Positions 2,576 to 31,392 of a stretch of DNA of 64,000 bases are shown piece by piece. A program made the translations under genes and the position numbers. The first letter of the stretch is position 1. Every line of letters starts with the position of its first letter. The notes beneath the pieces are model-generated. The model saw only the letters and a program-made list of their open reading frames with translations, did not search any database and was not told the DNA's origin. Source of the stretch: Gammaproteobacteria bacterium. Its GTDB lineage: Bacteria; Pseudomonadota; Gammaproteobacteria; Ga0077554; Ga007554. The stretch lies in assembly GCA_021731145.1 (NCBI GenBank), contig JAKFXX010000007.1, positions 72,108-136,107 of the forward strand, in the 5' to 3' direction.

Positions 2576-4186
2576 ATGAAGCGTATTTTTTGTGCGGTGT
2601 TGTACGCCAGTTTTTTTTTCTGGTTTCCGGCGATGGCGCAAGAACAGGCCCCGGCCCCGGCAGAAGAGCAGCCGGTGGTGTTCGATGTGATGGAATACCG
2701 TGTGGAGGGCAACACGGTGTTGCCTGCCATAGTGATCGAGAAGGTGCTTTATCCGCATTTGGGCACGGCAAAAAAGATCGAGGACGTGGAAAAGGCGCGC
2801 GTTGATCTGGAGAAGGCCTACCGCGATGAAGGTTATCCCACCGTGCTGGTGGATATCCCCGAGCAGGATGTGAACAACCGGATGGTGCGCTTGCGCGTGA
2901 CGGAGAGCAAGGTCGAGAAGGTGCGTGTTGTCGGCTCCCGTTACTATTCGCAGGGGCGGATCCTGGAAAAATTCCCGGCGCTGACGCAGGGCGGTGTGCT
3001 GTATCTGCCGGATGTGCAGAAAGGCTTGAGCCGAGTCAACCGCAGCGCGGACCGGCGCGTGACGCCGATACTCAGGCCGGGCAAGACGCCAGGCACCGTG
3101 GAGGTTGATTTCAAGGTTGAAGACAAGCTGCCGCTGCATGCAAGCCTGGAATTGAATGACCGTTACAGCGGCAATACCAGCCCATTGCGGATGATCGGCA
3201 TGGTGCGCTATGACAATCTGTGGCAGCGAGAGCACAGCTTGAGTGTGCAATATCAGACCGCGCCGGAAAAGACCAGCGAAGTCAGTGTATTTTCCGCGTC
3301 TTATTTGTTGCCGGTGCCGGATTCCGACAGGTTGATCGCGATGTACGCCGTGCGTTCACGCAGCGATGTGGCGGCGGTGGGGAATATATCGGTGCTGGGT
3401 CAGGGTGATATTTTCGGCGTGCGCGCCATCCTGCCGCTGCCGCAGCGTGATCGCTTTTTTCATTCCTTGTCATTGGGCTTCGATTACAAGGATTTCAAGG
3501 AAAACGTGACACTGCTTGGCGCGGATTCCATCCGTACCCCGATCAGCTATTTGCCATTTACAGTGCAGTATAACTCGACTTTGCAGGGTGATAGCGGCGT
3601 GACGCAGGCGGATGTGGGGCTGAATTTTTCTGTCCGCGGCCTCGCCGACAACAGGATTGACTGTTTCGGGCAGCACGTTAACGAATTCGAATGCAAGCGC
3701 TATAACGCCAAGCCCAGTTATCTGTATCTGAAGGCCGGTTTGCAGCGCGTGCAACAGTTGCCGCTGGGTCTGCGGCTGATCGCGAGGATCGACGGTCAAT
3801 TGACGGGCCAGCCCCTGATCAGCAATGAGCAATTCGGCGCAGGCGGTGTTGAAAGCGTGCGCGGTTATCTGGAGTATGAGCGATTGGCGGATAACGGCGT
3901 GCGTGGCAGCGTGGAATTGCGCAGCCCCTCGGTTGCCGCGAAGTTGTCAAAGAAATTCGACGACCTGTATTTTCTCGGATTTGCGGAGGGCGCAAAGCTG
4001 CGTGTTAGTGAGCCCCTGCCGGGCCAGGTGTCACGTTTCAGTTTGTCCAGCGCGGGTGTTGGCGTGCGCTTTAAAGGTTGGCGTTACTGGAATGCGTCGC
4101 TCAATGTGGCGGTGCCGTTCGAGAATGCAGCCTTCACAAAGGCCGGGGATGTACGGGTGCATTTCCGGATGGCGTATGAATTTTAG
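2576..4186 (+). CDS. TpsB transporter (ShlB/FhaC/HecB-family outer-membrane hemolysin activation/secretion protein)
   Basis: Signal peptide MKRIFCAVLYASFFFWFPAMA. POTRA-type start VFDVMEYRVEGNTVL. Size 536 aa. Beta-barrel-like C-terminus ending in YEF. Lies immediately upstream of a TPS-domain exoprotein. Confidence 0.9.
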   Translation: MKRIFCAVLYASFFFWFPAMAQEQAPAPAEEQPVVFDVMEYRVEGNTVLPAIVIEKVLYPHLGTAKKIEDVEKARVDLEKAYRDEGYPTVLVDIPEQDVNNRMVRLRVTESKVEKVRVVGSRYYSQGRILEKFPALTQGGVLYLPDVQKGLSRVNRSADRRVTPILRPGKTPGTVEVDFKVEDKLPLHASLELNDRYSGNTSPLRMIGMVRYDNLWQREHSLSVQYQTAPEKTSEVSVFSASYLLPVPDSDRLIAMYAVRSRSDVAAVGNISVLGQGDIFGVRAILPLPQRDRFFHSLSLGFDYKDFKENVTLLGADSIRTPISYLPFTVQYNSTLQGDSGVTQADVGLNFSVRGLADNRIDCFGQHVNEFECKRYNAKPSYLYLKAGLQRVQQLPLGLRLIARIDGQLTGQPLISNEQFGAGGVESVRGYLEYERLADNGVRGSVELRSPSVAAKLSKKFDDLYFLGFAEGAKLRVSEPLPGQVSRFSLSSAGVGVRFKGWRYWNASLNVAVPFENAAFTKAGDVRVHFRMAYEF

Positions 4187-4315: not shown

Positions 4316-4346
4316 TTTTCTACTCTATTTTTCGGGGTATCACCAC

Positions 4347-7300: not shown

Positions 7301-10300
7301 TGCGGATATTGGCGGCTTCAGCCGGCGCCAGGTGTTGCTGCCAGAGCAGCGTGCGCCCGGCACCATCACCTTTGCCGCCGGAAGTTCCTTGTGGGGAGCT
7401 ATTTCGGTTGAGGAAGGCGCGCAGGTGCGCACCGATCCAGGGGGAACGATTACGCTCAGTGCAGGCAGCCAGATCAGCCTTTTTGGCGCGCTGGAAGCGC
7501 CCGCCGGGAAGATTTTGCTGGATATAAAAGGCTATGCCGTGAACGGGACATTCGAGCCTAACCGTTTCGTTTGGCTGGGGGGCAACAGCCGCTTATTGGC
7601 GCAGGGTTTCGCCAGAACCCAGACCAATAACCAGGGGCTGCTTCAGGGCGAGGTTCTGGCTGGCGGTGAGATTAACGTCAGCGCCCCGCAAGATACATAT
7701 CTTGTCGCCGAGGCGGGTTCGGTGATGGATGTTTCAGGGGTCAGCGCCACGCTGGATATTCCTCAGCAAAACAATGCCGGCGTGAGCTATCGCCGTGACA
7801 CGATTGCCGGGGATGCGGGCGTTGTTAATCTTGCCATGTCCAACATGTTGCTTGACGGCACATTAAAGGGTGCGGCCGCCGGGGAGCATGCGCGTGGTGG
7901 TTCGCTTATTCTGTCATCCCCCGTGATGGTGGTGAAAGAGGATGGCGCGTCGTTGCCGCAGGGTTTGACGCCCGGCCAGAATATCGCTGCCAAAATGCTT
8001 GAGCCTGCGGCAAGCGCCCTCCAGGGGAAGTCTTTCGTTACGGCAAAGTCGGTGCGTGATGGCGGCTTTGATCAGATCACCTTGACGAGCCTGAACACCA
8101 TTGAATTTGATGGCGATGTCAGCCTTGCGCTGCGGCGCAGCATCACGCTCGATGCGCCAACGATTGCGGCAAAGGAGAATGCCAAGGTTGATCTCGCGGC
8201 CAGTTATGTGTCTGTGGGCAATAGCTCGATTGTGAAGTCGGCATCATCGGGTGGCGGTGGAACGTTAGACGTCGATGCGCGCCTGATTGATCTGGAAGGT
8301 AATGTTGCGCTACAGGGTTTTGGCAATGTTAATTTGGCCAGCACCGGTGATATCCGGCTCAAGGGCGTGTTGCAGGGCAGCGATTTTCTTGCACGCACGC
8401 TGGAAGGCTCGCTTGTCACCGGCGGCAACCTGACGCTACAGGCTGACCAGATTTATCCCACCACCTTGAGTCAATTCCGGCTGGCCGTTGAAAATAATCC
8501 AACGGGCAGCGTGACGATCCTCGGTGGAGGCGCGCCCAGCCCGGTGTTGTCGGCGGGCGGCAAACTTACCGTGAATGCGCCAAACATTGTGCAGCAAGGG
8601 GTACTCAAGGCGCCGCTGGGTGACATCACGCTGGCAGCGGAAGATACGCTGACCTTGGGCGATGGCAGTATCACGTCGGTTTCGGCGGAGGGGCAGATCA
8701 TTCCCTTCGGCAAGACCGATCTGAACGGCAGCGATTATCTCTACCCGCTGGCAGCCGTCGATCTTCGGCTGGATGCGCCGCCTGAAAAGCGTATCCGGTT
8801 GAATGGCAAGGCGATCACGGTTTCAGAAAATGCCGTAGTGGATATCTCCGGCGGGGGCGATCTTTACGCCTATGAATTCATTCCGGGGCCGGGTGGATCC
8901 AGGGATGTGCTTGATGCGGCGAATGCGGGTGATGTTTTCGCCATTCTGCCGGGACGTGCATCTGAATTTGCACCCTATGACAGCCATTATTATCAGGGTA
9001 ACAAGGGAATCAAGCCGGGCGATAGTGTTTATCTATCCGGCGTGGAGGGCTTGCCGGCAGGTTTTTATGCCATGATGCCTGCCCGTTATGCCTTGTTGCC
9101 CGGCGCCTTTCTGGTGAAACCGGTCTCAGGGTATCAGGATATGTCGCCTGGCCAGGCTGTGAAATTGACCGATGGCGCAACCATTGTGTCAGGCTACCAC
9201 GCGGCCGTGGGCCTGGACGGCAGCATCCTGCGTGATGCCAGAACATCGGGTTTTGCCGTGCGCCCTGGCGCATCTGCGCGCACCCAATCGGAGTATCTGG
9301 ATAGCACCGCGAGCGGATTCTTCGCCAACAGCCCGGGCACCCAGCTATCGGGCGATGCAGGCAATCTCTCCATCGCCGCTACCCAGTCCTTAACGCTGAA
9401 TGGTGTGCTGAAAGGTGATCATGCCGCTGGGCGTAACGGCTCGGAAGTGGACATTACCGCCGACCGGCTGGCCATCGTAGGCGCAGGGGCAGACACGTCT
9501 GGTCTGGAGGGCTTCATGCAGCTTGATGCCGCCAGCCTGAACAAATTCAGCGCGTCCAGCCTGTTGTTGGGCGGTACCCGCAAGCGCACTGAAAAAGGCA
9601 TGGAAATCCGCATGGATGCACGGCAGGTTGTGGTCGCCAACACGGCATCCAGCGCGCTGCGTGGCCCTGAGGTTTTATTGGCCGCCAAGGATGAGGTCAG
9701 GGTAAAGGCGGGCAGCGTAGTGGAAGGCAAGGGCGCCGCTTCCGGCAAGCCCCAGGATATTGCCATCGGGTTCACGATCAGGGATACCGACAACGACGGC
9801 GTTATCGGCAAGGCGGACACCAATCGCGGTGATGTGAATCATGATGGCGTGATTGATGGGCAGGACAATGTGGACGGCAATGGCGCGCTGTTGCGCGTGG
9901 CGTCCGGTGAAGCGGTGGCGATAACGCGCGAGAGCGTTGATCGCAGCCAGGGTGATCTGGTGGTGGAGGCCGGCGCGGTGTTGCGGGCAGACAAGTCCAT
10001 GATATTGGACGCTACGCGTGACAACCGTTCAGAGGGCACGCTTGCATTGGGCGAAGGGGGCGCTTTGAGCGTGGGCGCGCAGCGCATCAGCCTGGGCGAG
10101 GCGGGCGATGTGCGGGAAGGGTTGGTGTTTTCCAATGCGCAGCTTGCCGCGCTGAATAACCTTGGCAGCCTGACACTGCGCAGTTATAGCGCGGTGGATA
10201 TTTATGGCGGGGGCGATTTCGGCAGCAAGGCACTGAAGAACCTTTCTATCGAAGCGGCGGGTTTCGGAGGTTATCAAAACGCAGGACAAACAGCGACGCT

Positions 10301-14711: not shown

Positions 14712-14949
14712 TTATCTTTGAATGTATGCGCTGTGCCCATGAAGGGGGCAATGTGCGCACCGGAGCAAGCAGCCTGGGCGACGTGGAACGGAATCCAGGC
14801 TGCGCACTTCATTTGATCAAACTGTCTGCTATTAACAATTCTGCAACATTTGGCGGGTAAAGTACCCCCTTCCTAAGCAAGCTCATCCCGTTGATGGGGT
14901 GGACGACAGCATATTCCTTCGATCAACCGGATTCACGAATAAAAACGTC

Positions 14950-16743
14950 ATGAAATTGCAATCCAACAAAAAGATATCGCGCATTTTTTTATTACTGGCG
15001 GGTTTGATGACGCTTGTCCCAGGTGTTTCCCACGCCTGGTGGAGTGACGATTGGTCGTATCGCAAAAAGATAACCCTCAATACCACGGAAAGTGGAGCAA
15101 GTATCAAGGAGAGTTTGGCGTCCGTGCCGGTCTTGGTGCGTCTGCACAGCGGCAATTTCGATTTTTTGAGCAGCAAGGAAGACGGATCGGACCTGCGTTT
15201 TGTCAGTGGCGATGACAAAACACCGCTCAAATATCACATCGAAAAATTCGATGGGCTGAATGAGCTTGCCGTGATCTGGGTACAGGTGCCGGCGCTGTCG
15301 GCACAATCCAGCGCCGACGCAATGTGGCTGTATTACGGCAATGAAAAGGCGGCCGCAGGCGATGACGCCAAAGGCACTTACGACGTTAATCAGGTGGTTG
15401 CCTATCATTTTGGCGGCCAGGGCGCACCCAAGGATCAAACCGCCTATGCCAACAGTGCAGCACAGTCCACGGCGAGCGAAGCCGCTGCATCATTGATCGG
15501 CGCAGGCGCAATATTCAATGCTACAAGCACCATAACCATACCGGCATCACCTTCACTCAACTTTACCGCAGAGAAGGGCTTCACGTTTTCCGCATGGATC
15601 AAGACTGCTGCGACGCAGGCGAATGCCGTAATTTTTTCCCAGCAGGAGGGCGCGGCGTCGCTGGTTATCGGCATGGATCAAGCGGGGGTGTATGCCCGCA
15701 TGCCCGGTGCGGAAACAAAACGTGTCGCGTTGGCGCCAGGCGCATGGCACCACGTGGCGGTAAGCGCCGGTAAGCGCCTGGTTGTTTATGTCGATGGCGT
15801 TGAGGCAGCAGCGGCGGATGCCGCCCTGCCGCCGCTGGGTGGGAATATCACGCTGGGCACCTCATTTACCGGTGAGATGGATGAGGTGCAGATATCAAAC
15901 GTTGCCCGTTCCGCGGACTGGATTAAAGCAGCGGCGCAAGGGGAAGGCGTTGATGCGAAGTTGATCGCCTACGGCGCGGATGAACAAACAGAGGGCGGCG
16001 ACTCATCTTATTTTAAGACTATCCTGCAATCCGTTACGCTCGATGGCTGGGTGGTGATCGCGATTTTGATGGTGATGGCCGTCATAAGCTGGATCGTGAT
16101 GGTGAACAAGGCTGTCGTCATCGGCAGAATGACCAGGGATAATGAAAAATTTATCACGTCTTTCCAGAAAGTCGCGGCTGATCCAGGCGTGCTGGACAGG
16201 GATGATGATCAGGATGATAACGCCAATAAAGAGACGCCTTTTGCCGCAGCATTGTTCGGGCGGCACGATCATTACCAAAGCTCGCCGATTTACCGCATCT
16301 ATCATGTTGGTGTGCAGGAAATCAAACACCGCTTTGGCAACACCGATCCCAAACTTGTAGGCAAGGCGCTCTCGCCGCAAGCCATCGGTGCGATTCGTGC
16401 CAGCCTCGATGGGGCATTGGTCAGGGAAAATCAGAAGCTCTCCAGCCAGATGGTGTTGCTCACCATCGCCATCAGTGGTGGGCCGTTCCTTGGTTTGCTC
16501 GGCACCGTGGTGGGCGTGATGATCACCTTCGCCGCGATTGCCGCCAGTGGTGACGTCAACGTCAATGCCATTGCGCCCGGTATTGCCGCAGCGCTGGTGG
16601 CTACCGTGGCGGGTCTGGCCGTGGCGATTCCAGCACTGTTTGGCTACAACTACCTGATCAGTAAAATCAAGAATATCACTGCGGATATGCATGTATTCGT
16701 CGATGAGTTTGTTCACAAGCTGGCTGAGAACTACGGAACTTAG
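14950..16743 (+). CDS. DUF2341/LamG-domain fusion to a MotA/TolQ/ExbB proton channel
   Basis: Signal peptide MKLQSNKKISRIFLLLAGLMTLVPGVSHA. WWSDDWSYRKKITLNT...VIWVQVP...WLYYGN (DUF2341-like). FTFSAWIKT...GAWHHVAVS...VVYVDG (LamG/concanavalin-like). Then three TM helices with an ExbB-type C-terminal pair (GGPFLGLLGTVVGVM / ALVATVAGLAVAIPALFGYN). Confidence 0.85.
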   Translation: MKLQSNKKISRIFLLLAGLMTLVPGVSHAWWSDDWSYRKKITLNTTESGASIKESLASVPVLVRLHSGNFDFLSSKEDGSDLRFVSGDDKTPLKYHIEKFDGLNELAVIWVQVPALSAQSSADAMWLYYGNEKAAAGDDAKGTYDVNQVVAYHFGGQGAPKDQTAYANSAAQSTASEAAASLIGAGAIFNATSTITIPASPSLNFTAEKGFTFSAWIKTAATQANAVIFSQQEGAASLVIGMDQAGVYARMPGAETKRVALAPGAWHHVAVSAGKRLVVYVDGVEAAAADAALPPLGGNITLGTSFTGEMDEVQISNVARSADWIKAAAQGEGVDAKLIAYGADEQTEGGDSSYFKTILQSVTLDGWVVIAILMVMAVISWIVMVNKAVVIGRMTRDNEKFITSFQKVAADPGVLDRDDDQDDNANKETPFAAALFGRHDHYQSSPIYRIYHVGVQEIKHRFGNTDPKLVGKALSPQAIGAIRASLDGALVRENQKLSSQMVLLTIAISGGPFLGLLGTVVGVMITFAAIAASGDVNVNAIAPGIAAALVATVAGLAVAIPALFGYNYLISKIKNITADMHVFVDEFVHKLAENYGT

Positions 16744-16783
16744 TACATGAACACATAAATTGTGCAGCGTAATGCCGCACGAT

Positions 16784-16831
16784 TGTAGGTCGGCCTTCAG
16801 GCCGACATATCCGGCTAAAGCCAGACCTACA
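16784..16831. repeat. REP-type element (tgtaggtcggccttcaggccgaca family)
   Basis: tgtaggtc...gacctaca termini with an internal ggccttcaggcc hairpin, located between the exbB-like gene and exbD. Confidence 0.6.
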
Positions 16832-16892
16832 TGGGGTTCGGATCATGTTTCGTAATTTATAATTTCATGTGCTAGGACTGGAGGATAAAACG

Positions 16893-17297
16893 ATGCAAGT
16901 GCAGTCCGAAGATAAACCGTACGATGACATCAACGTCACGCCCATGCTCGATCTGGCGTATGTGTTGCTGGTAATTTTCATCATCATGACCACCGCTTCG
17001 GTACAGGGTATCAAGGTCAATCTGCCCAAGGCCAGCGCCACACCAAGCCTGGCTAAACCGACCACCAAGGCGATTACGATCACCGATGCCGGGCAAATAT
17101 TTCTCGACACCTATCCGGTGACGATGTCGGAGCTGGAAACACAGTTGCGCAGTTACAAGGCAGCCAACCCAAGTTTTCCCGTGGTCATCAAGGGCGACGC
17201 CAAGGTTCAGTATGAAAAGGTGATTGACGTGCTGGACTTGATGGGCAAGCTCGATATTACGCAATTGGGTTTGGTTACACAGAAAATTGTCAAATAA
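16893..17297 (+). CDS. exbD: ExbD/TolR-family biopolymer transport protein
   Basis: A ggagga RBS lies 8 nt upstream of ATG 16893. N-terminus DDINVTPMLDLAYVLLVIFIIM is the typical ExbD TM segment. Size 134 aa. Confidence 0.9.
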   Translation: MQVQSEDKPYDDINVTPMLDLAYVLLVIFIIMTTASVQGIKVNLPKASATPSLAKPTTKAITITDAGQIFLDTYPVTMSELETQLRSYKAANPSFPVVIKGDAKVQYEKVIDVLDLMGKLDITQLGLVTQKIVK

Positions 17298-17336
17298 GAG
17301 CGCTATGCCAGGCTCGATTTTGTTGGGATGTAACGT

Positions 17337-18032
17337 GTGAGTGCCGACAAGCAGTTTCTGTTCCGCTGGGCGCCCAGGCTGATAGTGGTGGCGTTCCTCC
17401 TGCTGTTTCTTGTGGCGGCGGTCTATTTTCTGAGAGATATCATCTTTGCTGATGATAGCCACAAAAAAAATGTGATCCATGAGATCTCGCTGATAAAGCC
17501 GCCGCCGCCTCCCAAGCCAGAGGAAAAACCACCGGAGCCGGAGGTGAAAAAAGAAGAGGTAAAAATCCCCGAGCCGGAAACGCCGCCTCCTCCTGCTGAT
17601 CAGCCTGATAATGCCAAGCAAGACGAACCACCGCCCGCAAACGACTTGGGGCTGGATGCTGATGGTCAGGCGGGTTCTGATTCCTTTGGCTTGGGTGCCA
17701 ACAAAGGGGGAAGAAGCATCATCGGAGGGGGGGGCGGTAACGGCGGTGGTGGAAATCGCTACGGCTGGTATGCGGGAATGATTGAAAAGGGAATTCAGGA
17801 TGTTTTGGACAAGAATAAAGAGCTTGCCAAAGATAACTATAAGGTTGTCATAAAAGTCTGGGTCAACAAGGACGGGAGCGTCGAGCGCTTTGATCTTGGC
17901 GGTTCTTCCGGGAATCCAGAGACGGATAAGGCGATAAGGACGGCACTGAAAGAAATGACACGGGTGAAAGAACCGCCTCCAGACGGAATGCCGCAACCTG
18001 TAAAGCTGCGCATCACTTCGCGTTTGTTGTAA
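17337..18032 (+). CDS. tonB: TonB-family energy transducer
   Basis: GTG start. N-terminal TM LIVVAFLLLFLVAAVYFL. Pro/Glu/Lys-rich spacer KPPPPPKPEEKPPEPEVKKEEVKIPEPETPPPP. C-terminal TonB-like domain VIKVWVNKDGSVERFDL...PVKLRITSR. Confidence 0.8.
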   Translation: MSADKQFLFRWAPRLIVVAFLLLFLVAAVYFLRDIIFADDSHKKNVIHEISLIKPPPPPKPEEKPPEPEVKKEEVKIPEPETPPPPADQPDNAKQDEPPPANDLGLDADGQAGSDSFGLGANKGGRSIIGGGGGNGGGGNRYGWYAGMIEKGIQDVLDKNKELAKDNYKVVIKVWVNKDGSVERFDLGGSSGNPETDKAIRTALKEMTRVKEPPPDGMPQPVKLRITSRLL

Positions 18033-18037
18033 GTCGG

Positions 18038-18058
18038 CAGGTAATGCCGGATTACCTG
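18038..18058 (+). terminator. Small hairpin after tonB (weak terminator candidate)
   Basis: caggtaat / attacctg forms a perfect 8-bp stem with a 5-nt loop. No clean T-run follows. Confidence 0.3.
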
Positions 18059-18121
18059 ATGATTTTCATCCCTCTGGGGTGAGGATTGAGATGAAAAATT
18101 CACAGTGAGAAGAACCTGGAA

Positions 18122-19660
18122 ATGGCAATTAAGAAATTAGGTGTTACCGTCTTATCTCTCGCATTGTTCAATCCATCCGCGTGGGCTGGAGAAAAAGAAG
18201 ATCTTGAAAAACTGCGCGGAACTACCAAAGGACTGATTCAAATTCTGGTGGAGCAGGGCGCGATTACCAAGGAAAAGGCCGGGGAGTTAATACGCGAGAT
18301 CGAGAAATCTCCCACGGAAACGGAAACACCGGAAGAAGAAGTAGATAAGAAAACCGTGCGCGTGCCTTACGTGTCTGAAACGGTCAAGCAGGAAATGACG
18401 GAGCAGATCCGGATGGATGTGCTGGCACAAGCCAAGCGGGAACAGTGGGGCAAGCCCGGCGCAATCCCTGAGTGGGCACAGAAAATAAGGTGGGAAGGCG
18501 ATTTTCGCTTGCGTTCACAGAGCGATATGTTTCAGAGCGACAACTTTAACCTCCTGCCAAACTATCTGGAGATTAACCGGGTTGGCGGTCCGGCGAATAC
18601 GGATAATCCCTTTCTGAATACTACTAATGACCGGGAGCGTTTACGGTTGCGGGCAAGGCTGAGCATGCTCGCCGAAGTCACGCAAGGGGTCACGGCGGCA
18701 TTCCGTCTGGCCACCGGTAGTGCCAATGATCCTGTTTCGACCAACCAGACATTGGGCAATATGGGCAATCGTTTTAATTTTATGCTTGATCAAGCCTACA
18801 TCAAGCTGGAGCCTTATCAATGGTTGACGCTGGTGGGTGGCAAGATACCCAATCCCTGGTTTGGCACCGACCTGGTGTGGGACGAGGATCTTAACTTCGA
18901 TGGCGCCGCCGTGCAATTCAAACCGCGCATCGGCAACGAACTGGTATGGTTCTCAACGCTGGGTGCTTTTCCGTTGCAGGAAATCGAGCTGTCGAAAAAG
19001 GACAAATGGCTATACGGTGCGCAGACCGGTGTCGATTGGAATCGAAGCCAGTTCAGGGCGAGATTTGGCGTGGCTTATTATGACTACCAGAATATCACCG
19101 GGCAAAGAAAAGCGCCCAATGATCCTTCTCAGGATTTTACCGCGCCGCAGTTTATGCAGAAAGGTAATACCTTGTTTGATATTTCACAAACTCAAAACAG
19201 TGGCAGGTACGCGCTTGCATCTGAATACAAAGAATTGAACATAACCGCCAACCTCGATATATACACATTTTCCCCGGTACACATCACGCTGACAGGCGAT
19301 TATGTCAAGAATATTGGGTTTAAAAAAGAAGACATAGTGCAGCGTACCGGGAGAGATGTCGACCAGCAGAATCAGGCATATTTGGGCAGGGTTGCTGTCG
19401 GCATGCCGAGGATCAAGCATCGCCACGACTGGCAGGTGTTCGGTGGTTATAAACACCTGGAAAGCGACGCCGTATTGGATGCCTTCACAGATTCCGATTT
19501 CCATCTGGGGGGCACCAATGCCAAAGGCTGGATCGCGGGCGGTAGCTATGGTGTTGCCACCGATACCTGGCTGACACTGCGCTGGTTGAGCGCGGATCAG
19601 ATAGTTGGGCCGCCGCTTGCCATCGACGTTATGCAACTTGATTTGAACGTGAGATTTTGA
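18122..19660 (+). CDS. Putative porin-like outer-membrane beta-barrel with an N-terminal charged/coiled segment
   Basis: Signal peptide ...LFNPSAWA. About 90 aa of Glu/Lys-rich helix. Alternating beta-strand-like sequence follows. The terminal LDLNVRF carries an OMP-type C-terminal Phe. Confidence 0.65.
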   Translation: MAIKKLGVTVLSLALFNPSAWAGEKEDLEKLRGTTKGLIQILVEQGAITKEKAGELIREIEKSPTETETPEEEVDKKTVRVPYVSETVKQEMTEQIRMDVLAQAKREQWGKPGAIPEWAQKIRWEGDFRLRSQSDMFQSDNFNLLPNYLEINRVGGPANTDNPFLNTTNDRERLRLRARLSMLAEVTQGVTAAFRLATGSANDPVSTNQTLGNMGNRFNFMLDQAYIKLEPYQWLTLVGGKIPNPWFGTDLVWDEDLNFDGAAVQFKPRIGNELVWFSTLGAFPLQEIELSKKDKWLYGAQTGVDWNRSQFRARFGVAYYDYQNITGQRKAPNDPSQDFTAPQFMQKGNTLFDISQTQNSGRYALASEYKELNITANLDIYTFSPVHITLTGDYVKNIGFKKEDIVQRTGRDVDQQNQAYLGRVAVGMPRIKHRHDWQVFGGYKHLESDAVLDAFTDSDFHLGGTNAKGWIAGGSYGVATDTWLTLRWLSADQIVGPPLAIDVMQLDLNVRF

Positions 19661-19717
19661 CCTGTGTATTTTTTAGAGTCACGGAACACGGCCGGGACCA
19701 GACAGGAGGTGAATGTC

Positions 19718-20416
19718 ATGATCCGTCATAAAGGATGGCTTCTGCTTGTAATGTTCACTCTAGGGTTGGCCGGAAATGCCGCTGCGGATTCCGGTGACAA
19801 AAAAGAACGCGAGGCGCTAAGAAAAATGCGCCTCATGATACAGACGTTTGAACAGGAAAAATCGGCGCTGCAGCAGGAAAACAATAGCCTGAACGAGAAA
19901 GTGAAGGCACTGGGTAGCCAGGTCGGTGACATCAAAAGCGCTTCCACAGGCCAGATCAGGAAAAAAGATGCTCGTTTGGGCGAGGTTGAAAAGGAACTGG
20001 TTGCTGTCAAACAGGAAAATCAGTTTCTGGTAGCCAAGCTGCAAAGTACCCAGCAGAGTCTGGAAGAATTGACGCTGAAGCACAAGGAGGTTGTTCAGGC
20101 CGCGCAAAACAGTCTTCAGGACGGCGTCAAGCAAGGCGAGGAGTATAACAATAAGATAAAAGAGGCTGAAGTCAAAATTTCTCAGCAGTCTCAAGCTATT
20201 GACATGTGCGAGAAGAAGAATCTGGCGCTTTACAATCTCAATATGGAGATTCTGGAGAAATACAAGAGTAAGGGTGTTTGGGGATCATTTATTCAGGCTG
20301 AGCCCTTTACGCAAATAAAGCGCGTTGAAATTGAGAATACACTGCAAGAATATAAGGACAAGCTTGACAGCCAAAAAATGGAAAAATCTGGACCCGGCAC
20401 CGGCAAGGGAGGATAG
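19718..20416 (+). CDS. Secreted/periplasmic coiled-coil protein
   Basis: An aggagg RBS precedes ATG 19718. Signal peptide MIRHKGWLLLVMFTLGLAGNAAA. The remainder is heptad-like and rich in Glu/Lys/Gln/Leu. Confidence 0.7.
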   Translation: MIRHKGWLLLVMFTLGLAGNAAADSGDKKEREALRKMRLMIQTFEQEKSALQQENNSLNEKVKALGSQVGDIKSASTGQIRKKDARLGEVEKELVAVKQENQFLVAKLQSTQQSLEELTLKHKEVVQAAQNSLQDGVKQGEEYNNKIKEAEVKISQQSQAIDMCEKKNLALYNLNMEILEKYKSKGVWGSFIQAEPFTQIKRVEIENTLQEYKDKLDSQKMEKSGPGTGKGG

Positions 20417-22133: not shown

Positions 22134-22185
22134 TGGCTGTTTTACTTACGAGATGAGTCCTCAGAGTAAGTGATATTTGATTTGT

Positions 22186-23382
22186 ATGCCCATTTACCAT
22201 TATAGCGCCTTGACAGAACGCGGCGTTTTGGCCGCAGGCGAGGGGGTTGCCACCTCGAGCGAAGCTTTACGCCAGGAATTGGTGGCGAAGGGTCTGCTGG
22301 TACAAGACATCCGTCAAAAAAACTCTGGATTGGGCTTGCGCCTAAAGCGCATCAAAGCGGAGGAATTTCTGCTGTTTAACCAGGAGTTTGTGGCACTCAT
22401 ACGCGCGGGTTTGACAATACCCGACGCCTTGAAAATAGCGGCGGATCGTCCTGATAGCCCGATGTTGGCCAGCCTCCTGCGGCACGTGAATGAAGAGGTG
22501 CATGGTGGTGCGTTACTTTCCGAAGCCTGCTCCAGGCACCCCGAGGTATTCGATGGTCTTTACGTCTCTGCGATAAAAACCGGCGAAAAGACCGGCGTGC
22601 TGGCGACGGTTCTGGAGAAATATCAAGCCTACCTCAAACGCCGGGTTGGTTTGCAGAAAACCATTTCACATGCGCTGACCTATCCGGTGTTTTTGTTGCT
22701 GGTGTTAGGCACGGTGCTGGGTGTGCTGTTTTTGTTTGTCATGCCGCGTTTTGTTGCGATGTATACCGATTTTGGCGCTGAACTGCCGCTACCCACACAA
22801 ATTCTCGTTACCTTGGTAAATAATTTGCCTTTTTATTTACCCGTGGTGTTATTGCTGGGCACGCTCGGATGGTTCGCCATCCAAGCCTGGGTAAAGACCG
22901 ATGCAGGGCGTCTGCGGGCAGATCATTTGAAGGGACGGCTGCCGATACTGGGGAAGGTCTATCAGGATATTGCCATCGTGCAACTGGTGCGGACGCTTGC
23001 CACCCTGCTCTCCGGTGGTACGCCCTTGGTCGAGGCCATGCGCATCACGCAGGATTCACTTACCAATCGCGCCAAGGCGCGTGCGTTGGCTCAGGCCGAA
23101 AACCTGGTGATGGGGGGGCAAAGCCTGGCGTCTGCCATGCGCAATACGCAACTCATGCCGGGAACGGCAATAAAGATGATTGAGGTGGGCGAGGCGTCGG
23201 GTGGGCTTGATGCCATGCTGGAGGAAATCGCCCAGTTCTATGAGGAAGTACTGACTAATAAACTTGCACGCATGACAGCATTGATTGAGCCTTTATTGAT
23301 GCTGATCATGGGCGTCATGATAGGCGGCACGATCATCGTGATGTATTTGCCGATCTTTCAGATTGCGGACATCGTCAAATGA
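22186..23382 (+). CDS. gspF: Type II secretion / type IV pilus platform protein (GspF/PilC family)
   Basis: About 400 aa with a duplicated T2SS-F architecture and three TM segments. Its stop overlaps the next start (ATGA). Confidence 0.9.
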   Translation: MPIYHYSALTERGVLAAGEGVATSSEALRQELVAKGLLVQDIRQKNSGLGLRLKRIKAEEFLLFNQEFVALIRAGLTIPDALKIAADRPDSPMLASLLRHVNEEVHGGALLSEACSRHPEVFDGLYVSAIKTGEKTGVLATVLEKYQAYLKRRVGLQKTISHALTYPVFLLLVLGTVLGVLFLFVMPRFVAMYTDFGAELPLPTQILVTLVNNLPFYLPVVLLLGTLGWFAIQAWVKTDAGRLRADHLKGRLPILGKVYQDIAIVQLVRTLATLLSGGTPLVEAMRITQDSLTNRAKARALAQAENLVMGGQSLASAMRNTQLMPGTAIKMIEVGEASGGLDAMLEEIAQFYEEVLTNKLARMTALIEPLLMLIMGVMIGGTIIVMYLPIFQIADIVK

Positions 23383-25097
23383 GCCATCCCTTCAGTTACC
23401 GGAGGTTAGGAGAAATCCTGCTGGGCAAGCAGTATGTCAGCCATCATCAGATAGATGCCGTCCTGACAGGCAAAAAGGGCCGGCTGGGCGAGGTGTTGCT
23501 TGATGAAGGCCGCATTACGCCAGCGCAGTTGGCCGAGGCTCTGGCAGAACAGTGCGGCTTACCCTATGTTGACCTGGAGGGATTTGTTATTTCGCCAGAG
23601 TTGTACAGCTTGATATCTGCAACGCACGCCTATCAGTATGGGGTTGTTCCCTACCAGAGAGACGGAGAAGTGTTGATCGTTGTTGTTTCTCCCCCCTGCG
23701 ATATTACTTTGGCCGACCGCCTGGAATGTTTGAGCGGTTTACAGGTGCGCCTATTTGCCAGCAGTCCACAAGCGATTGCAGCGGTGTTGAAGCGCAGCGA
23801 AGGGAATTCCGAGGTACTGAAAGGCGTCTCCGAGGATTTCAAGCTTGCCATCGTCAAGGAGAATGACGATGGCAAGGAGCAATACGTGTCATTGGATGCG
23901 GCCAATGAAGATGCCGCAAGCCCGGTTATAAAGCTCATTAACAGCATGCTGTCGGCGGCCATTCAAAAGCGTGTCAGTGACGTACATATAGAGACCTACG
24001 AAAAAGGCATCTCGGTCAATTACCGTATCGATGGTGTTTTATACCCCGCGACCGATACGCTCGACCGGCGCCATCAGAGCGCGTTGGTGTCGCGCCTCAA
24101 GGTGATGGCGGAGTTGGATATCGCCGAAAAAAGGGTACCCCAGGATGGACGATTCAAGTTGCGCTTTGGTTCGCGTGACATAGATTTCAGGGTATCCATC
24201 CTGCCCAGTGTGTTCGGTGAAGATGTGGTTATCCGGATTCTGGACAAATCATCCATCACCGATGGGATGAAGAATCTACGTCTGGAAAGCTTGGGAATGG
24301 CACCTGAAATCCTGAAAAAATTTCGCAAGAGTATCCATGAACCCTATGGCATGGTGCTGATTACCGGCCCCACGGGCAGTGGAAAAACGACCACGCTGTA
24401 TGCGGCGCTCAGCGAATTGAATACCGGTGATGAAAAGATCATTACCATCGAAGATCCGGTCGAATATCAATTGCACGGCATCGTGCAAATCGCGGTAAAC
24501 GAGAAAAAAAATCTTACCTTTGCCAAGGGGCTGCGTTCCATACTGCGGCATGATCCTGACAAGATCATGGTAGGTGAAATACGCGATGGAGAAACAGCGC
24601 AGATTGCCGTTCAATCGGCGCTGACGGGGCATCTGGTGTTCACAACGGTGCATGCTAATAGTGCTTTCGATGTGCTCGGGCGCTTCAGCCATATGGGAGT
24701 GGATACGTATAACTTTGTTTCGGCGCTCAATTGCGTCATGGCACAACGCCTGGTTCGAATCATTTGCCCGAAATGCAAGCGTCAAACCGCGGTTGATGAT
24801 GACATTCTGGAGCTGTCCGGGCTCGATCCTGCACAATATCAAGATCAAGCATGGTACGAAGGCGCCGGCTGTGATTACTGCCACGGCACGGGTTATCGCG
24901 GCCGTGCCGCCGTTACCGAGTTTCTCGCTTTGTCGCCATCCATCCGCCAGATGATCATAGAACGGCGTCCGATCAATGAGATGCAGGCGGCGGCGGTGCA
25001 GAATGGGATGGTCACATTACGTCAATCCGCACTGGCGCTGGTGCTTTCAGGCCAGGCGACGCTGAAAGAGATTAATCGTGTCACTTTCGTTGAATAA
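23379..25097 (+). CDS. gspE: Type II secretion / type IV pilus assembly ATPase (GspE/PilB family)
   Basis: N-terminal T2SS-E N-domain (LGEVLLDEGRITPAQLAEALAEQ). Walker A GPTGSGKTTT. Tetracysteine CPKC...CDYC. Confidence 0.95.
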   Translation: MSHPFSYRRLGEILLGKQYVSHHQIDAVLTGKKGRLGEVLLDEGRITPAQLAEALAEQCGLPYVDLEGFVISPELYSLISATHAYQYGVVPYQRDGEVLIVVVSPPCDITLADRLECLSGLQVRLFASSPQAIAAVLKRSEGNSEVLKGVSEDFKLAIVKENDDGKEQYVSLDAANEDAASPVIKLINSMLSAAIQKRVSDVHIETYEKGISVNYRIDGVLYPATDTLDRRHQSALVSRLKVMAELDIAEKRVPQDGRFKLRFGSRDIDFRVSILPSVFGEDVVIRILDKSSITDGMKNLRLESLGMAPEILKKFRKSIHEPYGMVLITGPTGSGKTTTLYAALSELNTGDEKIITIEDPVEYQLHGIVQIAVNEKKNLTFAKGLRSILRHDPDKIMVGEIRDGETAQIAVQSALTGHLVFTTVHANSAFDVLGRFSHMGVDTYNFVSALNCVMAQRLVRIICPKCKRQTAVDDDILELSGLDPAQYQDQAWYEGAGCDYCHGTGYRGRAAVTEFLALSPSIRQMIIERRPINEMQAAAVQNGMVTLRQSALALVLSGQATLKEINRVTFVE

Positions 25098-26034
25098 TCT
25101 GTTTGACAGTATTGCACCGCGCTCTAAAGCCGTTTTTGGAATCGGCATCGGCAGGGATCGTCTTTCTGCCGCGCATGTTGTTACTACAAAACAGGCGAGA
25201 CATATCGAACGGATCAGGCAGATAAATCTGCCTTTCACACTATTCAGTGGCACCCCTACGCCCGAGATAGGTCATGGGCTTTCATCCTTGTTGGGCGAGT
25301 TATGCGGTGAAGTCAAAAGGTCGCATATTCCCATTCAGATCGCATTGCCTGACCCGGTGGTGAGCTTGCGTGTCTTCGAGTTGGGTGCCATTCCTAAAAC
25401 CAGAAAAGAGCAACTGGCGCTTGTCCACTGGCGGTTCAACAAGGAGTTGAATTTGGGGGGGCGCGCCATTGAATGCAGTTGCCAGCCTTTGGGCGTGGAT
25501 AACGACAAACATCTCTTGTTGGCGATGGCTATCGATCAGGCTTGGTTGGATTGCCTGAAGGAGGCGTGCCGGGACGCGGGTGTGATCAGTACGGTCATCG
25601 ACATGGCGGCGTGTTATCGCTCTAACCGTTTTTACGAACGCTTCTCTTGCGATGGCGCCGATGTAGTTGTTATTTCATTGGATGACGACGCCTGGACAGT
25701 GTCCATTTCGGACGCGCAAGGCCGTTTACGCTTTGTCCGCTCGCGTTGGCGTGAAACCATGCCGGAGCGGGAGAGGGAATATCAGGAAATAGCCGCCGAG
25801 TCAGAAAAGATGGTGCGCCTCTATGCGCATGCCGCCCCTGGCCGGAGCATAAAAAACATACACGCAATAGGTGATGCCAAGGATGTCTCTGGGGTCGCGG
25901 ATTTATTGGATCAACGCATGGCGGGGAAATGTATCAGGGTGGCCGGAGGAGTCGAGTTTATATCTAAGCAAGGCGTGTCCGGAAATACTGTAGACAGTAT
26001 GGTGTCAACCCTGTCGGCAACGGTGTTGCGATGA
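25078..26034 (+). CDS. PilM/GspL-like cytoplasmic assembly protein (actin-like fold inferred)
   Basis: Position and size fit. N-terminus AVFGIGIGRDRLSAAHVV resembles the PilM phosphate-1 strand. GTG start overlaps the gspE end. Confidence 0.45.
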   Translation: MSLSLNNLFDSIAPRSKAVFGIGIGRDRLSAAHVVTTKQARHIERIRQINLPFTLFSGTPTPEIGHGLSSLLGELCGEVKRSHIPIQIALPDPVVSLRVFELGAIPKTRKEQLALVHWRFNKELNLGGRAIECSCQPLGVDNDKHLLLAMAIDQAWLDCLKEACRDAGVISTVIDMAACYRSNRFYERFSCDGADVVVISLDDDAWTVSISDAQGRLRFVRSRWRETMPEREREYQEIAAESEKMVRLYAHAAPGRSIKNIHAIGDAKDVSGVADLLDQRMAGKCIRVAGGVEFISKQGVSGNTVDSMVSTLSATVLR

Positions 26035-26573
26035 AAATCATAACGAATTTTTCGACGTCATCCGCTGGCATGGCGCCGCGGATCATGATGATATTGTGGG
26101 CAACGGCGTTGCTGGCCGCGCTGTTAGCCGCTGGGATGGCTATGCAAACATCCCAATTGAAACAGACGAAGCTGGACTTGGAGCGTCAATTGTCAAAACT
26201 CCAAAACAGGCACGTCGCTGGGATCCCGAAAGTATTTCCCCGTCATGAAGAGCTTGTCACGTTAAAGAAGCGCATAGACGCTGTTTCATCCATATCAAAT
26301 AGTGGGGAAGGGTCACTATCCGCGTTCCTGAGAAAAATAGAGCTGCTATTGCCTGACGAAGCCTATCTTGTGACACTTCACTACAAGGGAGATACCAGGG
26401 AGGCTCAGATTACGGCTGAGGCAGGCAGCGCAAAAATACTTACCGGTTTTTTGCGTGATCTTGAAAAAGAGAAAAGCTTCCTTGAAGTTTTGCTGACAAA
26501 ACAGTCGCAGCGCACATTGAACGATAAGCAGATTGTTCAGTTCGATCTGCGTATAAAGGAGCGTCTTTCATGA
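26031..26573 (+). CDS. PilN/GspL-C-like bitopic inner-membrane assembly protein
   Basis: Single TM IMMILWATALLAALLAAGMA followed by a coiled segment and a ferredoxin-like-sized periplasmic domain. 4-bp overlap with neighbours on both sides. Confidence 0.5.
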   Translation: MKIITNFSTSSAGMAPRIMMILWATALLAALLAAGMAMQTSQLKQTKLDLERQLSKLQNRHVAGIPKVFPRHEELVTLKKRIDAVSSISNSGEGSLSAFLRKIELLLPDEAYLVTLHYKGDTREAQITAEAGSAKILTGFLRDLEKEKSFLEVLLTKQSQRTLNDKQIVQFDLRIKERLS

Positions 26574-27139
26574 AGGCGACGCATCCTTTTGCGGAAAACA
26601 TATGGTATTCGCTACGCCATCCCCTGATCAAGGCGGGGATGGCGGCTAGCGGGGCCGCCATAACCCTGGCCATTGTAGTCTGTTTTGGATATTGGATGCC
26701 CGTGCGTAACGATATCAACAGCCTCTCTGAATCGGTTAATCTCGAACGTAAGCGGATTGTTGATGATACGCGTTCCGTGCAAATTTATAACGCATATTTG
26801 AGCGCTATAAAACAGCTTTCGGCCATTGATAAAAAAATTAACAGCCCTGCCGGTCATGCAGATCTTGTGAATAATATTGATAGTATCGCAATACAAAGAA
26901 AAGTAACGATTATTTCTGAATCCTACGATGAGGGTAAAGAAAGGAATGGTTACACGTCGCTGTATATGGAGTTGGCATTACAGGGAGACTATCAGGGGCT
27001 GAATGAATTTCTTGTTGATATTCGTGGCCTGCCAACCTGGACTGTTGTTGGGGAAGGGTCGATAAGCCGCTTGGCAGGACAGCAGGATTTGGTTAAGGCG
27101 CAATTGCGTTTAATAACTTATCACAAGACGGGAATATGA
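26570..27139 (+). CDS. PilO/GspM-like bitopic inner-membrane assembly protein
   Basis: Single TM AASGAAITLAIVVCFGYW, a coiled segment and a periplasmic domain. Translationally coupled to neighbours. Confidence 0.5.
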   Translation: MKATHPFAENIWYSLRHPLIKAGMAASGAAITLAIVVCFGYWMPVRNDINSLSESVNLERKRIVDDTRSVQIYNAYLSAIKQLSAIDKKINSPAGHADLVNNIDSIAIQRKVTIISESYDEGKERNGYTSLYMELALQGDYQGLNEFLVDIRGLPTWTVVGEGSISRLAGQQDLVKAQLRLITYHKTGI

Positions 27140-27768
27140 AAAGTTACAAGGAAGTAGCCATCAGACATCGCAATGCAATATTGCTGGTGATGGCTTTTGT
27201 CTTGATGGCCGCCAACGTATTGAATTGGGGCGCATGGGGTCAGGTCAATTCTCGGGAAGCGCCTGGAAGGGGATCAACGGCAGGGGGGTTCCAGGTTTCT
27301 GATTTTCAGATAAAAAATATGAATGTGCCTGAGGAGAAAGATAGCGCGATTGGCCGTGACTTGTTCTATCCTGTTTTTGAAGAATATTCAGAACCTGTTA
27401 AAGAAATAACATCCATTGCGGAGGATAATGAAAATATTAAACAAATAACTGATGCCGAGATACCTCCTCCCCTTCCGCAAAAAACTCCTGAACAACTTGA
27501 AGAGGAGATCGCACGGTCCGATGCCGCTAATTTTAAATATATTGGTACGATTTGGCGTGGAGGACAAGGCCAGGCGCTTTTGGTGAACACGGACAAGCGT
27601 TATTTCGTCTTTTCTGGAGACAAGGCAGGCAGCCGATTCGTTGTTGAAATGATAACGAACGACGCGGTCTCTCTAAGAGACCCTGTCACAAACGTGACGG
27701 CTCAAGTACTAATATCGGGAGGACCCGCATTAAAAGCGGCTCAAGAGACAAGTGACATTGAAAGATAG
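27136..27768 (+). CDS. PilP/GspC-HR-like protein
   Basis: N-terminal TM AILLVMAFVLMAANVL. C-terminal beta-sandwich-like FKYIGTIWRGGQGQALLVN...GDKAGSRFVVEMITNDAVSLRD. Lies immediately upstream of the secretin. Confidence 0.45.
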   Translation: MKSYKEVAIRHRNAILLVMAFVLMAANVLNWGAWGQVNSREAPGRGSTAGGFQVSDFQIKNMNVPEEKDSAIGRDLFYPVFEEYSEPVKEITSIAEDNENIKQITDAEIPPPLPQKTPEQLEEEIARSDAANFKYIGTIWRGGQGQALLVNTDKRYFVFSGDKAGSRFVVEMITNDAVSLRDPVTNVTAQVLISGGPALKAAQETSDIER

Positions 27769-27774
27769 CGTAAA

Positions 27775-30057: not shown

Positions 30058-30538
30058 GAAATACAAACTCCTGGGAGTCACCTTCGTCGAGTTGCTGGTG
30101 ACGCTGGTGATTCTTTCGATTCTCGCGGCGGTTGCATTGCCTTATGCAGAAATTACGGTGCGCCGCAATAAGGAGATTGAATTGCGCCAGGCACTGCGTG
30201 ATATGCGCAGTGCCATTGACCGTTTTCATCTGGACTGGGAAACGGCAAAAATATCGAAATTGGATAATGATGTTAGCGAAAATGGTTACCCAAAAAAATT
30301 GCAAGTATTGGTTGAAGGAGTGGGGTCTGCCCAGGCCAAAGGGACAAAGATTAAATACTTGCGCCGAATTCCTGCCGACCCGTTCTCCGGCCCTGACAAG
30401 CCGTCACTGGAGCACTGGGTGCTGCGCGGTTATCAGGATGCGTCCGATGCCACCTCGTGGGGAGGAACGGATGTTTACGATGTACGGTCATTAAGCCGTC
30501 GCAAGGCGATTGACGGCAGCTTCTACAAGGATTGGTGA
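30041..30538 (+). CDS. GspG-like pseudopilin 1
   Basis: Prepilin motif KLLG/VTFVELLVTLVILSILAAVALP with Glu at +5. GTG at 30041 gives a 12-aa leader; the ATG at 29960 would give an implausible 39-aa leader inside the secretin gene. GspG-like YPKKL...RRIPADPFSG. Confidence 0.7.
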   Translation: MSLYARKYKLLGVTFVELLVTLVILSILAAVALPYAEITVRRNKEIELRQALRDMRSAIDRFHLDWETAKISKLDNDVSENGYPKKLQVLVEGVGSAQAKGTKIKYLRRIPADPFSGPDKPSLEHWVLRGYQDASDATSWGGTDVYDVRSLSRRKAIDGSFYKDW

Positions 30539-30539
30539 C

Positions 30540-30917
30540 ATGCGCCGCAGTATTGTCCACAAGGCGCGCGGCTTTACCTTGGTGGAGCTGATGGTGGTGC
30601 TGGTTTTGATTGTTATACTTGCCAGTCTCGCAGCACCCTTGGTAACCAGCTCAATACAGCGCGGCCGTGAAGCTGTGCTCAAGGAAGATTTATTAGTGAT
30701 GCGTAAAGCAATTGATGATTACTATGCGGATACGGGAAATTATCCGGAGGATATCAAGCAACTGATGGAAAAACGTTATCTGAGGAAAATTCCTGTTGAT
30801 CCTTTAACTGAACGCAGTGATACGTGGCGTGAGGTTCGTGATGATGCGGGGATTGTTGATATAAAAAGTGGAGCGGATGGAAAATCCGCCAATGATGAGT
30901 CATACAGCGAATGGTAG
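30540..30917 (+). CDS. GspG-like pseudopilin 2
   Basis: Leader MRRSIVHKARG/FTLVELMVVLVLIVILASLAAP with Glu at +5. AIDDYYADTGNYPEDIKQL...RKIPVDPLT. Confidence 0.85.
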   Translation: MRRSIVHKARGFTLVELMVVLVLIVILASLAAPLVTSSIQRGREAVLKEDLLVMRKAIDDYYADTGNYPEDIKQLMEKRYLRKIPVDPLTERSDTWREVRDDAGIVDIKSGADGKSANDESYSEW

Positions 30918-30957
30918 TTTATTGTCTTAATCTTAATTTGATGTGAGAGGCTGGTCT

Positions 30958-31392
30958 ATGAAAAAGAGCATGAGATGGTCTTCGGGTTTTACCATGATGG
31001 AGTTGCTGATTGTTCTGGTTATTATCGGATTGTTAGCGGCTTTGGTGGGTCCTGCATTGTTCCAGCGCATCAATCCGGCAAAACAATCGGCGGCGCGCAG
31101 TCAGATTGAAAATTTCATGACAGCTCTCGACACCTATTTTGTAGATAACGGACACTTTCCAACGACACAACAGGGTTTTTTGGCGCTTCGTGTTAAACCG
31201 GAAGGTGATGAAAAGTGGGCGGGGCCTTATCTTAAAAAAGACGTGCCAAACGATCCATGGGGAAATCCATACCAATACCGCGCTCCTGGACACAATGGTG
31301 GCTACGATATTTTATCTCTGGGCGCGGATGGTAAAGAGGGTGGCGAAAATGAAAATATGGATATCAATAGCTGGGAGATCGACAAGAAATAA
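30958..31392 (+). CDS. gspG: Type II secretion major pseudopilin GspG
   Basis: A gagagg RBS precedes the start. MKKSMRWSSG/FTMMELLIVLVIIGLLAALVGP. Canonical GspG body ARSQIENFMTALDTYFVDNGHFPT...GPYLKK..PNDPWGNPYQYRAPGHNGGYDILSLGADGKEGG. Confidence 0.95.
   Translation: MKKSMRWSSGFTMMELLIVLVIIGLLAALVGPALFQRINPAKQSAARSQIENFMTALDTYFVDNGHFPTTQQGFLALRVKPEGDEKWAGPYLKKDVPNDPWGNPYQYRAPGHNGGYDILSLGADGKEGGENENMDINSWEIDKK

Follow-up and report, generated by a model that had tools for sequence, protein, structure and literature searches.

The studied window is a stretch of 64,000 nucleotides (nt) of a gammaproteobacterial contig (JAKFXX010000007.1). It encodes a giant exoprotein of the TpsA type and, further downstream, a secretin that is a part of an operon similar to those of type II secretion systems and type IV pili (T2SS/T4P-like operon). 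The main features are listed in Table 1. The subject of this work is a short insert in the shaft of TpsA that consists of two adjacent loops of a calcium-binding type, and its possible relation to the C-terminal domain of the secretin. The first-pass annotation of the window took the insert for dockerin-like and the end of the secretin for cohesin-like. It suggested that the fibre could be docked on the secretin, with a Ca-dependent stabiliser as a fallback. We demonstrate that the insert is not a dockerin module and that the cohesin of the secretin is genuine. The insert is probably a pair of EF-hand-type Ca2+ sites without helices, which stiffens a knob at the surface of the extracellular beta-helix of TpsA.

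Table 1. Features of the window considered in this work, with coordinates in the window
Feature	Coordinates	Strand	Basis
TpsB transporter, POTRA_2 + ShlB	2576..4186	+	Pfam; directly upstream of TpsA
TpsA-type giant exoprotein, 3454 aa	4347..14711	+	Pfam and NCBIfam matches, translation
Ca-loop 1, DTDNDGVIGKAD (aa 1813-1824)	9783..9818	+	strict Dx[DN]xDGx[ILV]xxx[DE] match
Linker TNRG, four residues	9819..9830	+	sequence; the next Asp completes RGD
Ca-loop 2, DVNHDGVIDGQD (aa 1829-1840)	9831..9866	+	strict motif match
NVDGNG, return of the insert into the shaft	9867..9884	+	alignments; xDGxGALLRV block common to insert-less relatives
Cassette co-conserved with TpsA: ExbB-DUF2341-LamG fusion, ExbD, TonB, Porin_5, coiled-coil protein	14899..20416	+	Pfam, synteny across many genera
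T2SS/T4P-like operon: GspF, GspE (MshEN), PilM-like, PilN, PilO, PilP-like, secretin, three pseudopilins, fourth pseudopilin-like open reading frame	22177..31897	+	Pfam
Secretin, 760 aa	27775..30057	+	Pfam and sequence
Cohesin-fold domain, secretin C-terminus (~aa 632-760)	~29668..30054	+	Pfam, AlphaFold2, Foldseek

The exoprotein starts with an ESPR signal (residues 1-49), which is followed by a TPS domain (91-262, also recognized as NCBIfam TIGR01901), a long beta-helix shaft and a C-terminal DUF3739 domain (3288-3397). The N-terminal TPS domain, the ESPR and an adjoining TpsB with POTRA and ShlB barrel are the marks of a two-partner secretion exoprotein, and together with DUF3739 they bear out the initial assignment of the protein to TpsA.

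Residues 1813-1846 of TpsA (nt 9783-9884) read DTDNDGVIGKAD-TNRG-DVNHDGVIDGQD-NVDGNG. They include two adjacent 12-residue loops of the form D-x-[DN]-x-D-G-x-I-x-x-x-D, exactly at the coordinates where two consecutive loops had been noticed by the first-pass annotation. The Arg-Gly-Asp tripeptide (RGD) it mentioned is also present, at residues 1827-1829 (nt 9825-9833). The strict loop pattern D.[DN].[DN]G.[ILV]...[DE] was searched for in all six frames of the window. It has exactly two matches, both of them in the insert, which agrees with the presumed uniqueness of the loops within TpsA. Among 5000 shuffles of TpsA a single strict motif occurred in 0.8%, and the tandem pair did not occur at all. 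The tandem loop motif in TpsA is non-random.

An alignment with relatives confirms that the shaft is interrupted here. The insert is a clean indel of about 30 aa between conserved blocks of the shaft (...GKPQDIAIGFTIR before the insert and DGNGALLRVASGEAV... after it). The same tandem loops are found in near-identical TpsA relatives, namely in three loci from Logan assemblies (L004-L006), in the metagenome-assembled genome “Gammaproteobacteria bacterium Ga0074134” (L009, 94% identity to the TpsA of the window) and in L010 (92% identity). The relatives come from metagenomes of drinking-water, activated-carbon and groundwater type. One distant protein, P0001 (locus L003, 45% identity), also bears an insert of this kind, DRNGDGRIDLAD-GGR-DLNGDGRIDAAD. 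The insert was found neither in L007 and L011 (47-49% identity), L001, L002 and P0003-P0005, nor in any of about 40 other classifiable TpsA loci from 53 species-representative genomes. The insert-less loci include those of Thiobacillus, Methylotenera, Hydrogenophaga, Rhodoferax, Denitromonas, Steroidobacteraceae and Methylococcales. The TpsA of the metagenome-assembled genome LNFF01 (Ga0077554) lacks the insert, and P0001 originates from Logan ERR7599151.

These loci should not be counted by means of a word-indexed protein search. Such a search with the insert region produced six distant matches and missed 95%-identical TpsAs of 3442 aa, which were found via the neighbouring ExbB gene. Because relatives that close were missed, word-search counts are no measure of rarity for a giant repetitive TpsA.

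The site of the insert is variable in length: between none and about 45 additional residues are present there in the TpsA relatives. Other inserts occupy the same site in relatives from Variovorax, Bradyrhizobium and Rhodoplanes. In two TpsAs of Variovorax (L027 and L034) the insert is unrelated to that of the window and longer, with one strict loop, DDNRDGVIDQLD, and a half-motif DPDGQL. Since the Variovorax insert is a different one and nevertheless has a strict loop, Ca loops appear, judging by the sequences, to have arisen independently more than once at this hotspot of the shaft. The TpsA match in these two loci lies around 10001-11200, and both loci are devoid of the ExbB/porin cassette.

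Two simple origins of the insert were considered. A recent insertion of foreign DNA is ruled out because the G+C content at third codon positions is 0.65 in the insert and 0.66 in the gene, i.e., native to the gene. A recent internal duplication of one loop was judged unlikely; the DNA sequences coding for the two loops are only about 56% identical (compared by eye).

We compared the loops position by position in four variants: the window, L004/L009, L010 and P0001. Positions 1, 5, 6, 8 and 12 are invariant in both loops, position 3 is always D or N, and positions 2, 4, 7 and 10 are all variable. For loop 2 taken separately, the invariant positions are 1, 3, 5, 6, 8, 9 and 12. Within the clade of the window, every substitution in the insert falls on a non-ligand position. 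The insert thus has the properties of a Dx[DN]xDG, or EF-hand-type, loop: the motif itself is present, position 8 is hydrophobic and position 12 is acidic, and all of this is kept among the loop-bearing homologues.

The pattern of conservation bears on the reading of the insert as a neutral filler. In this reading it is an Asp/Gly-rich hypervariable loop that is not under selection for any role, and drift in its composition made it look like a Ca loop. The tolerance of the site to extra residues is in line with this, and so is the ease with which Asp-rich regions drift into the Dx[DN]xDG motif, as stated by Rigden et al. (PMC3123361). However, drift would have to account for two complete 12-residue loops with all six diagnostic positions kept between proteins of 45% identity and variable positions in between, as well as for a tandem pair that shuffling never yielded. 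We therefore regard a neutral filler as quite improbable.

The structure of TpsA residues 1700-1960 was predicted with AlphaFold2, with a predicted local distance difference test score (pLDDT) of 86. Beta-strands lie on either side of the insert. The insert itself (residues 114-147 of the model, pLDDT 74-83) is a coil with two helical turns of three residues each, located at positions 10-12 of the loops. This is the geometry of the exit from an EF-hand loop, and no extended helix follows. No significant match was obtained in a fold search with the model of the shaft; right-handed beta-helix proteins, among them the TpsA protein HpmA, rank highest among the weak matches.

Dockerins are self-contained modules, about 60-70 aa long, in which an alpha-helix (F-hand) comes after each loop. 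In cohesin-dockerin complexes the helices after each loop form the cohesin-binding face. What the insert shares with a dockerin is two 12-residue loops in which positions 1, 3 and 5 are D or N and position 12 is acidic. Its helices and spacing are not those of a dockerin: the starts of the loops are 16 aa apart, with a linker of four residues and coil in the AlphaFold2 model, vs 33 residues in the alignment with the solved dockerin 6kg9_A. The insert of the window has no match to Pfam Dockerin_1 (PF00404) at E<=10 and only sub-threshold matches to EF-hand families. The inserts of L010 (10.7 bits) and P0001 (19.3 bits, E 0.0013) also score below the Dockerin_1 cut-off of 22.9 bits, and of the 57 columns of the profile, the matches cover no more than the 13 that represent the loop. 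The best sequence matches of the insert in the PDB, made by loop 2, are Ca-loops of dockerins and are non-significant (6kg9_A, E 0.022). Because the helices are absent, the loop starts are too close and the Dockerin_1 scores are below the cut-off, the TpsA insert is not a dockerin module. Of the proposed dockerin- and EF-hand-like nature of this segment, the loops with their preserved ligand positions thus hold good and the dockerin module does not.

The insert does not fit two other known modules either. Profiles EF-hand_1, EF-hand_5 and EF-hand_6 give it 11-15 bits with cut-offs of about 25, again in the loop columns only. There are no flanking helices, and it is therefore not a canonical EF-hand domain. 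No match to the thrombospondin type-3 repeat (TSP_3, PF02412) was found at E<=10, and the insert contains no Cys.

The secretin is composed of a lipobox VASC (residues 20-23), TPR repeats, the domains N0/STN, Secretin_N and Secretin, a Pro/Ala/Ser-rich linker of about 55 residues and a C-terminal domain of about 130 aa. With its lipobox Cys23 (window 27775-27850), it is probably a liposecretin that anchors itself and has TPRs in its N-terminal part. The isolated C-terminal domain passes the threshold of Pfam Cohesin (PF00963) with 26.4 bits vs the cut-off of 24.1, and 28 of 35 diverse members of the secretin family match Cohesin individually. Of the two profile searches that the first-pass annotation recommended, the cohesin one is thus positive and the dockerin one, for the insert of the window, negative. 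The AlphaFold2 model of the domain is all-beta with pLDDT 91. All of the top 50 Foldseek matches of this model in the PDB are cohesins, including a non-cellulosomal one from A. fulgidus, with E-values down to 1.8e-9 and TM-scores of 0.65-0.81. The identity to solved cohesins is 11-20%, and a profile built from this domain in the secretin family has no match among PDB sequences at E<=1. The C-terminal domain of the secretin is therefore a genuine, divergent cohesin, as the first-pass annotation had supposed from the look of the sequence.

The cohesin is a constant feature of this group of secretins. We considered the best 120 of more than 1200 matches to the secretin (50-93% identity), and 119 of them have a cohesin at the C-terminus; the only one without it is a truncated protein. 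The domain was already annotated by Pfam as Cohesin in only four of the 120. Secretins of the Sideroxydans type, of about 36% identity (L069, 15742-17694; L067, 3312-5372 on the minus strand), keep the Pro/Ala-rich tail and have no cohesin. For this reason we rejected two apparent counter-examples to co-occurrence, the Sideroxydans-type loci L062 and L063. There an insert-less TpsA cassette lies directly upstream of a T2SS-like operon, and the secretins that could be read in clusters of this type (L069, L067) lack the cohesin.

The operon of the window has a close equivalent elsewhere. The same module of 11 genes is present in four distant genomes (L079, L080, L082 and L083, about 4500-14300 in each), with secretins of 52-57% identity, and also in L081, where the upstream end is cut by the end of the contig. 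The genes upstream of the four modules have unrelated housekeeping functions and are those of trehalose synthesis; relA and ridA; subunits of antiporter/NADH-dehydrogenase type; and glycolysis. In none of the four genomes were TpsA, ExbB or Porin_5 found within 10 kb of the cohesin-type operon, and no open reading frame of these loci contains a tandem dockerin-type loop. The only Dx[DN]xDG loops there are of FG-GAP type and belong to a toxin-complex-like protein of L083. A canonical dockerin is encoded neither in the window nor within 10 kb of the four related operons. The insert, for its part, is confined to one narrow clade of TpsA and one distant relative. The cohesin is thus far more widespread than the insert and occurs in TpsA-free operons. 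TpsA is widespread too, but it is only rarely embellished with the insert. The first-pass annotation had named homologous clusters that routinely carry one domain without the other as evidence against docking. This is what is found on the side of the cohesin, since it is constant in its secretin family and its operon has no TpsA cassette nearby in any of the four distant genomes.

These results argue against the docking of TpsA, in which the two loops together would serve as a reduced dockerin seated on the cohesin of the secretin and would tether the fibre to this secretin in the outer membrane. The cohesin fold is real, the loops do resemble the Ca-loops of dockerins, albeit with the sub-threshold matches given above, and less than 20 kb separates the coding sequences of the insert and the cohesin both in the window and in L004, a close relative. 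However, the insert lacks the helices and the spacing of a dockerin, about 40 TpsA relatives lack the insert, and the cohesin is kept by operons that stand alone, with no dockerin-type loop nearby. The topology is also unfavorable. In secretins of the GspD/PilQ type, the C-terminus faces the periplasm. By analogy, the cohesin would be periplasmic and the folded shaft of TpsA extracellular, which would make a stable dock between them awkward. The docking of the fibre on the secretin is thus unsupported, and we consider it very improbable. The same low probability is given to a one-clade variant, in which a helix-less “mini-dockerin” of 34 residues was captured by the pre-existing cohesin of the secretin. 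If such a capture did take place, it would physically couple a two-partner secretion fibre to a T2SS/T4P-like machine. It would be either transient, in the periplasm during export, or located at the surface, provided that the cohesin can extend outside on its long Pro/Ala-rich linker.

We consider it likely that the insert is a helix-less double Ca2+ site that stiffens a surface knob of the fibre. It is a lineage-specific insertion of two back-to-back Dx[DN]xDG loops into a length-variable surface loop of the shaft. By analogy with solved Dx[DN]xDG sites, each loop would hold one Ca2+ by the side chains of positions 1, 3 and 5, the backbone carbonyl of position 7 and the Asp of position 12. 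TpsA is exported unfolded via TpsB and folds outside the cell, where Ca2+ is plentiful, and for this reason the double site would fold only after export. There Ca2+ may lock a floppy excursion of 30 residues into a rigid, protease-resistant knob. Hence the fallback of the first-pass annotation, a Ca-dependent stabiliser, proves to be the best-supported reading: the insert is modeled as coil, it keeps its ligand positions and it is a clean indel, with Ca2+ binding presumed from the motif.

Several points weigh against this reading. We infer the binding of Ca2+ by the loops from their motif, the stabilising effect of the ion would follow by analogy, and a structural role is the default assignment. 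The AlphaFold2 model of residues 1700-1960 was built from a shallow alignment of seven sequences, with ions left out. Finally, the insert and the cohesin do occur together in the own clade of the window (the window and L004), which is the only one where a single contig allowed both to be read.

The knob could also be a Ca-dependent adhesion epitope that contacts a surface, an acidic polysaccharide or a eukaryotic receptor by Ca2+ bridging or, possibly, through the RGD. The exposure of the site at the surface, its variable length and the differing inserts in Variovorax, Bradyrhizobium and Rhodoplanes are typical features of loops that face a ligand or are antigenic. TpsA proteins of the FHA type are adhesins, and the RGD is present in the clade of the window. 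But this tripeptide is kept in near-identical relatives only and is absent from P0001 (GGR-DL); it arises trivially where Arg-Gly of the linker meets the Asp with which loop 2 begins. In bacteria from the water-related metagenomes listed above an integrin ligand is implausible, and fully coordinated EF-type sites would leave little free coordination of Ca2+ for bridging. An adhesive role of the insert therefore seems rather unlikely to us, and the stabilised knob is preferred.

The genes around TpsA form a conserved unit of their own. The full cassette (window 786-20416) includes a PBP-like protein, TpsB, TpsA (DUF3739), ExbB-DUF2341-LamG, ExbD, TonB, Porin_5 and a coiled-coil protein with the motif AEPFTQ/EKYKSKG. 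The cassette combines two-partner secretion with a TonB-type motor and a porin of its own. It is kept across many genera of beta- and gammaproteobacteria without the insert. The cassette is also found in L009, L011-L013, L016-L020, L022, L030-L033, L035-L037 and L039, and further in L043, L046, L048, L051-L053, L062 and L063. We searched the literature and found nothing on a TpsA-ExbB-TonB-Porin_5 cassette. In L007 (15785-21800) and L011 the cassette TpsA-ExbB-ExbD-TonB-Porin_5 is followed by type VI genes (ImpA, TagF, IcmF) and not by a T2SS-like operon. Because of this, the adjacency of the cassette and the T2SS-like operon in the window cannot be regarded as fixed.

Some observations concern the surroundings of the cohesin-type operon. 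The open reading frame of about 180 aa at 31352-31897, after GspG, has no Pfam match and is 51-66% identical to its counterparts in the operons of L079, L080 and L081; from its weak resemblance to pseudopilins, it is probably the fourth pseudopilin. In three of the four stand-alone cases a gene of a giant protein of extracellular type lies within a few kb after the operon. These are a Beta_helix_4 protein of 1220 aa and another of more than 2089 aa in L079 (16608-22337), an RHS/YD/PKD/CARDB protein of more than 2040 aa in L082 (16911-22382) and a SpvB/TcdB/FG-GAP protein of more than 3406 aa in L083 (14590-22334). Such proteins may be substrates or partners of the system. In L081 (11181-16530) the operon is followed by genes of polysaccharide export (Poly_export/SLBB, Wzz/GNVR, BcsQ-like), and a PEP-CTERM protein is encoded at the very start of the window (12-602). 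There are thus hints of a link between the cohesin-type operon and exopolysaccharide or PEP-CTERM biology.

The insert adds the beta-helix shaft of TpsA to the structural contexts of the Dx[DN]xDG motif. In addition, it points to a variable site, exposed at the surface, on the giant fibres of environmental Proteobacteria, which is useful for annotation and possibly for insertion engineering. The cohesin-bearing TPR liposecretins are the more interesting lead. They form a large uncharacterised family with a compact 11-gene operon, in which the cohesin is mostly missed by Pfam. Our search of the literature revealed no link of a cohesin to a secretin, and none for DUF2341-ExbB/T2SS. The role of a cohesin on a Gram-negative secretin is a testable question.

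Among the known calcium-loop modules, the type I dockerin (PF00404), such as CaDoc0917 of C. acetobutylicum (PDB 6kg9/6kgc), is similar to the TpsA insert in that both have a duplicated 12-residue loop, where positions 1, 3 and 5 are D/N, position 6 is Gly, position 8 is hydrophobic and position 12 is Asp. In contrast to the dockerin, the TpsA loops are 16 aa apart, helix-less, embedded in a beta-helix and below the Pfam cut-off. The “calcium wire” of thrombospondin type-3 repeats (DxDxDGxxDxxD) likewise consists of contiguous Ca loops without regular secondary structure between them, and loop 2 of TpsA fits the pattern D-x-D/N-x-D-G-x-x-D-x-x-D as these repeats do. Unlike them, the insert has no cysteines or disulfides, consists of two loops only and does not match TSP_3.

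Another parallel is provided by Dx[DN]xDG loops outside EF-hands. According to Rigden et al. 2011 (PMC3123361), at least 16 structural contexts have acquired these loops by convergence. Most of the contexts are extracellular, many have a narrow phyletic range, and the usual roles of the loops are structural. One such case is the subtilisin of Thermococcus (Tk-subtilisin), where a Ca-binding insertion of 25 residues is essential for folding. The TpsA insert is likewise a lineage-restricted insertion into an extracellular protein. It differs from those cases in that its host fold is a beta-helix shaft, a term absent from the passages searched, and that its two loops are directly tandem.

The TpsA of the window is similar to adhesins of the FHA/FhaB type in being a giant beta-helical fibre secreted by a two-partner system, with an RGD in the shaft. 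Compared with the RGD of FHA/FhaB, that of the window is a by-product of the junction between the linker and the loop, and it is unconserved beyond the immediate clade. The C-terminal domain of the secretin has the beta-sandwich fold of cohesins, as do the non-cellulosomal cohesins of A. fulgidus (2xdh) and C. perfringens (2jh2/2vo8). Unlike the known cohesins, it forms the C-terminal end of a liposecretin with TPRs, to which it is joined by a Pro/Ala/Ser-rich linker. This liposecretin is encoded in a T2SS/T4P-like operon of Proteobacteria.

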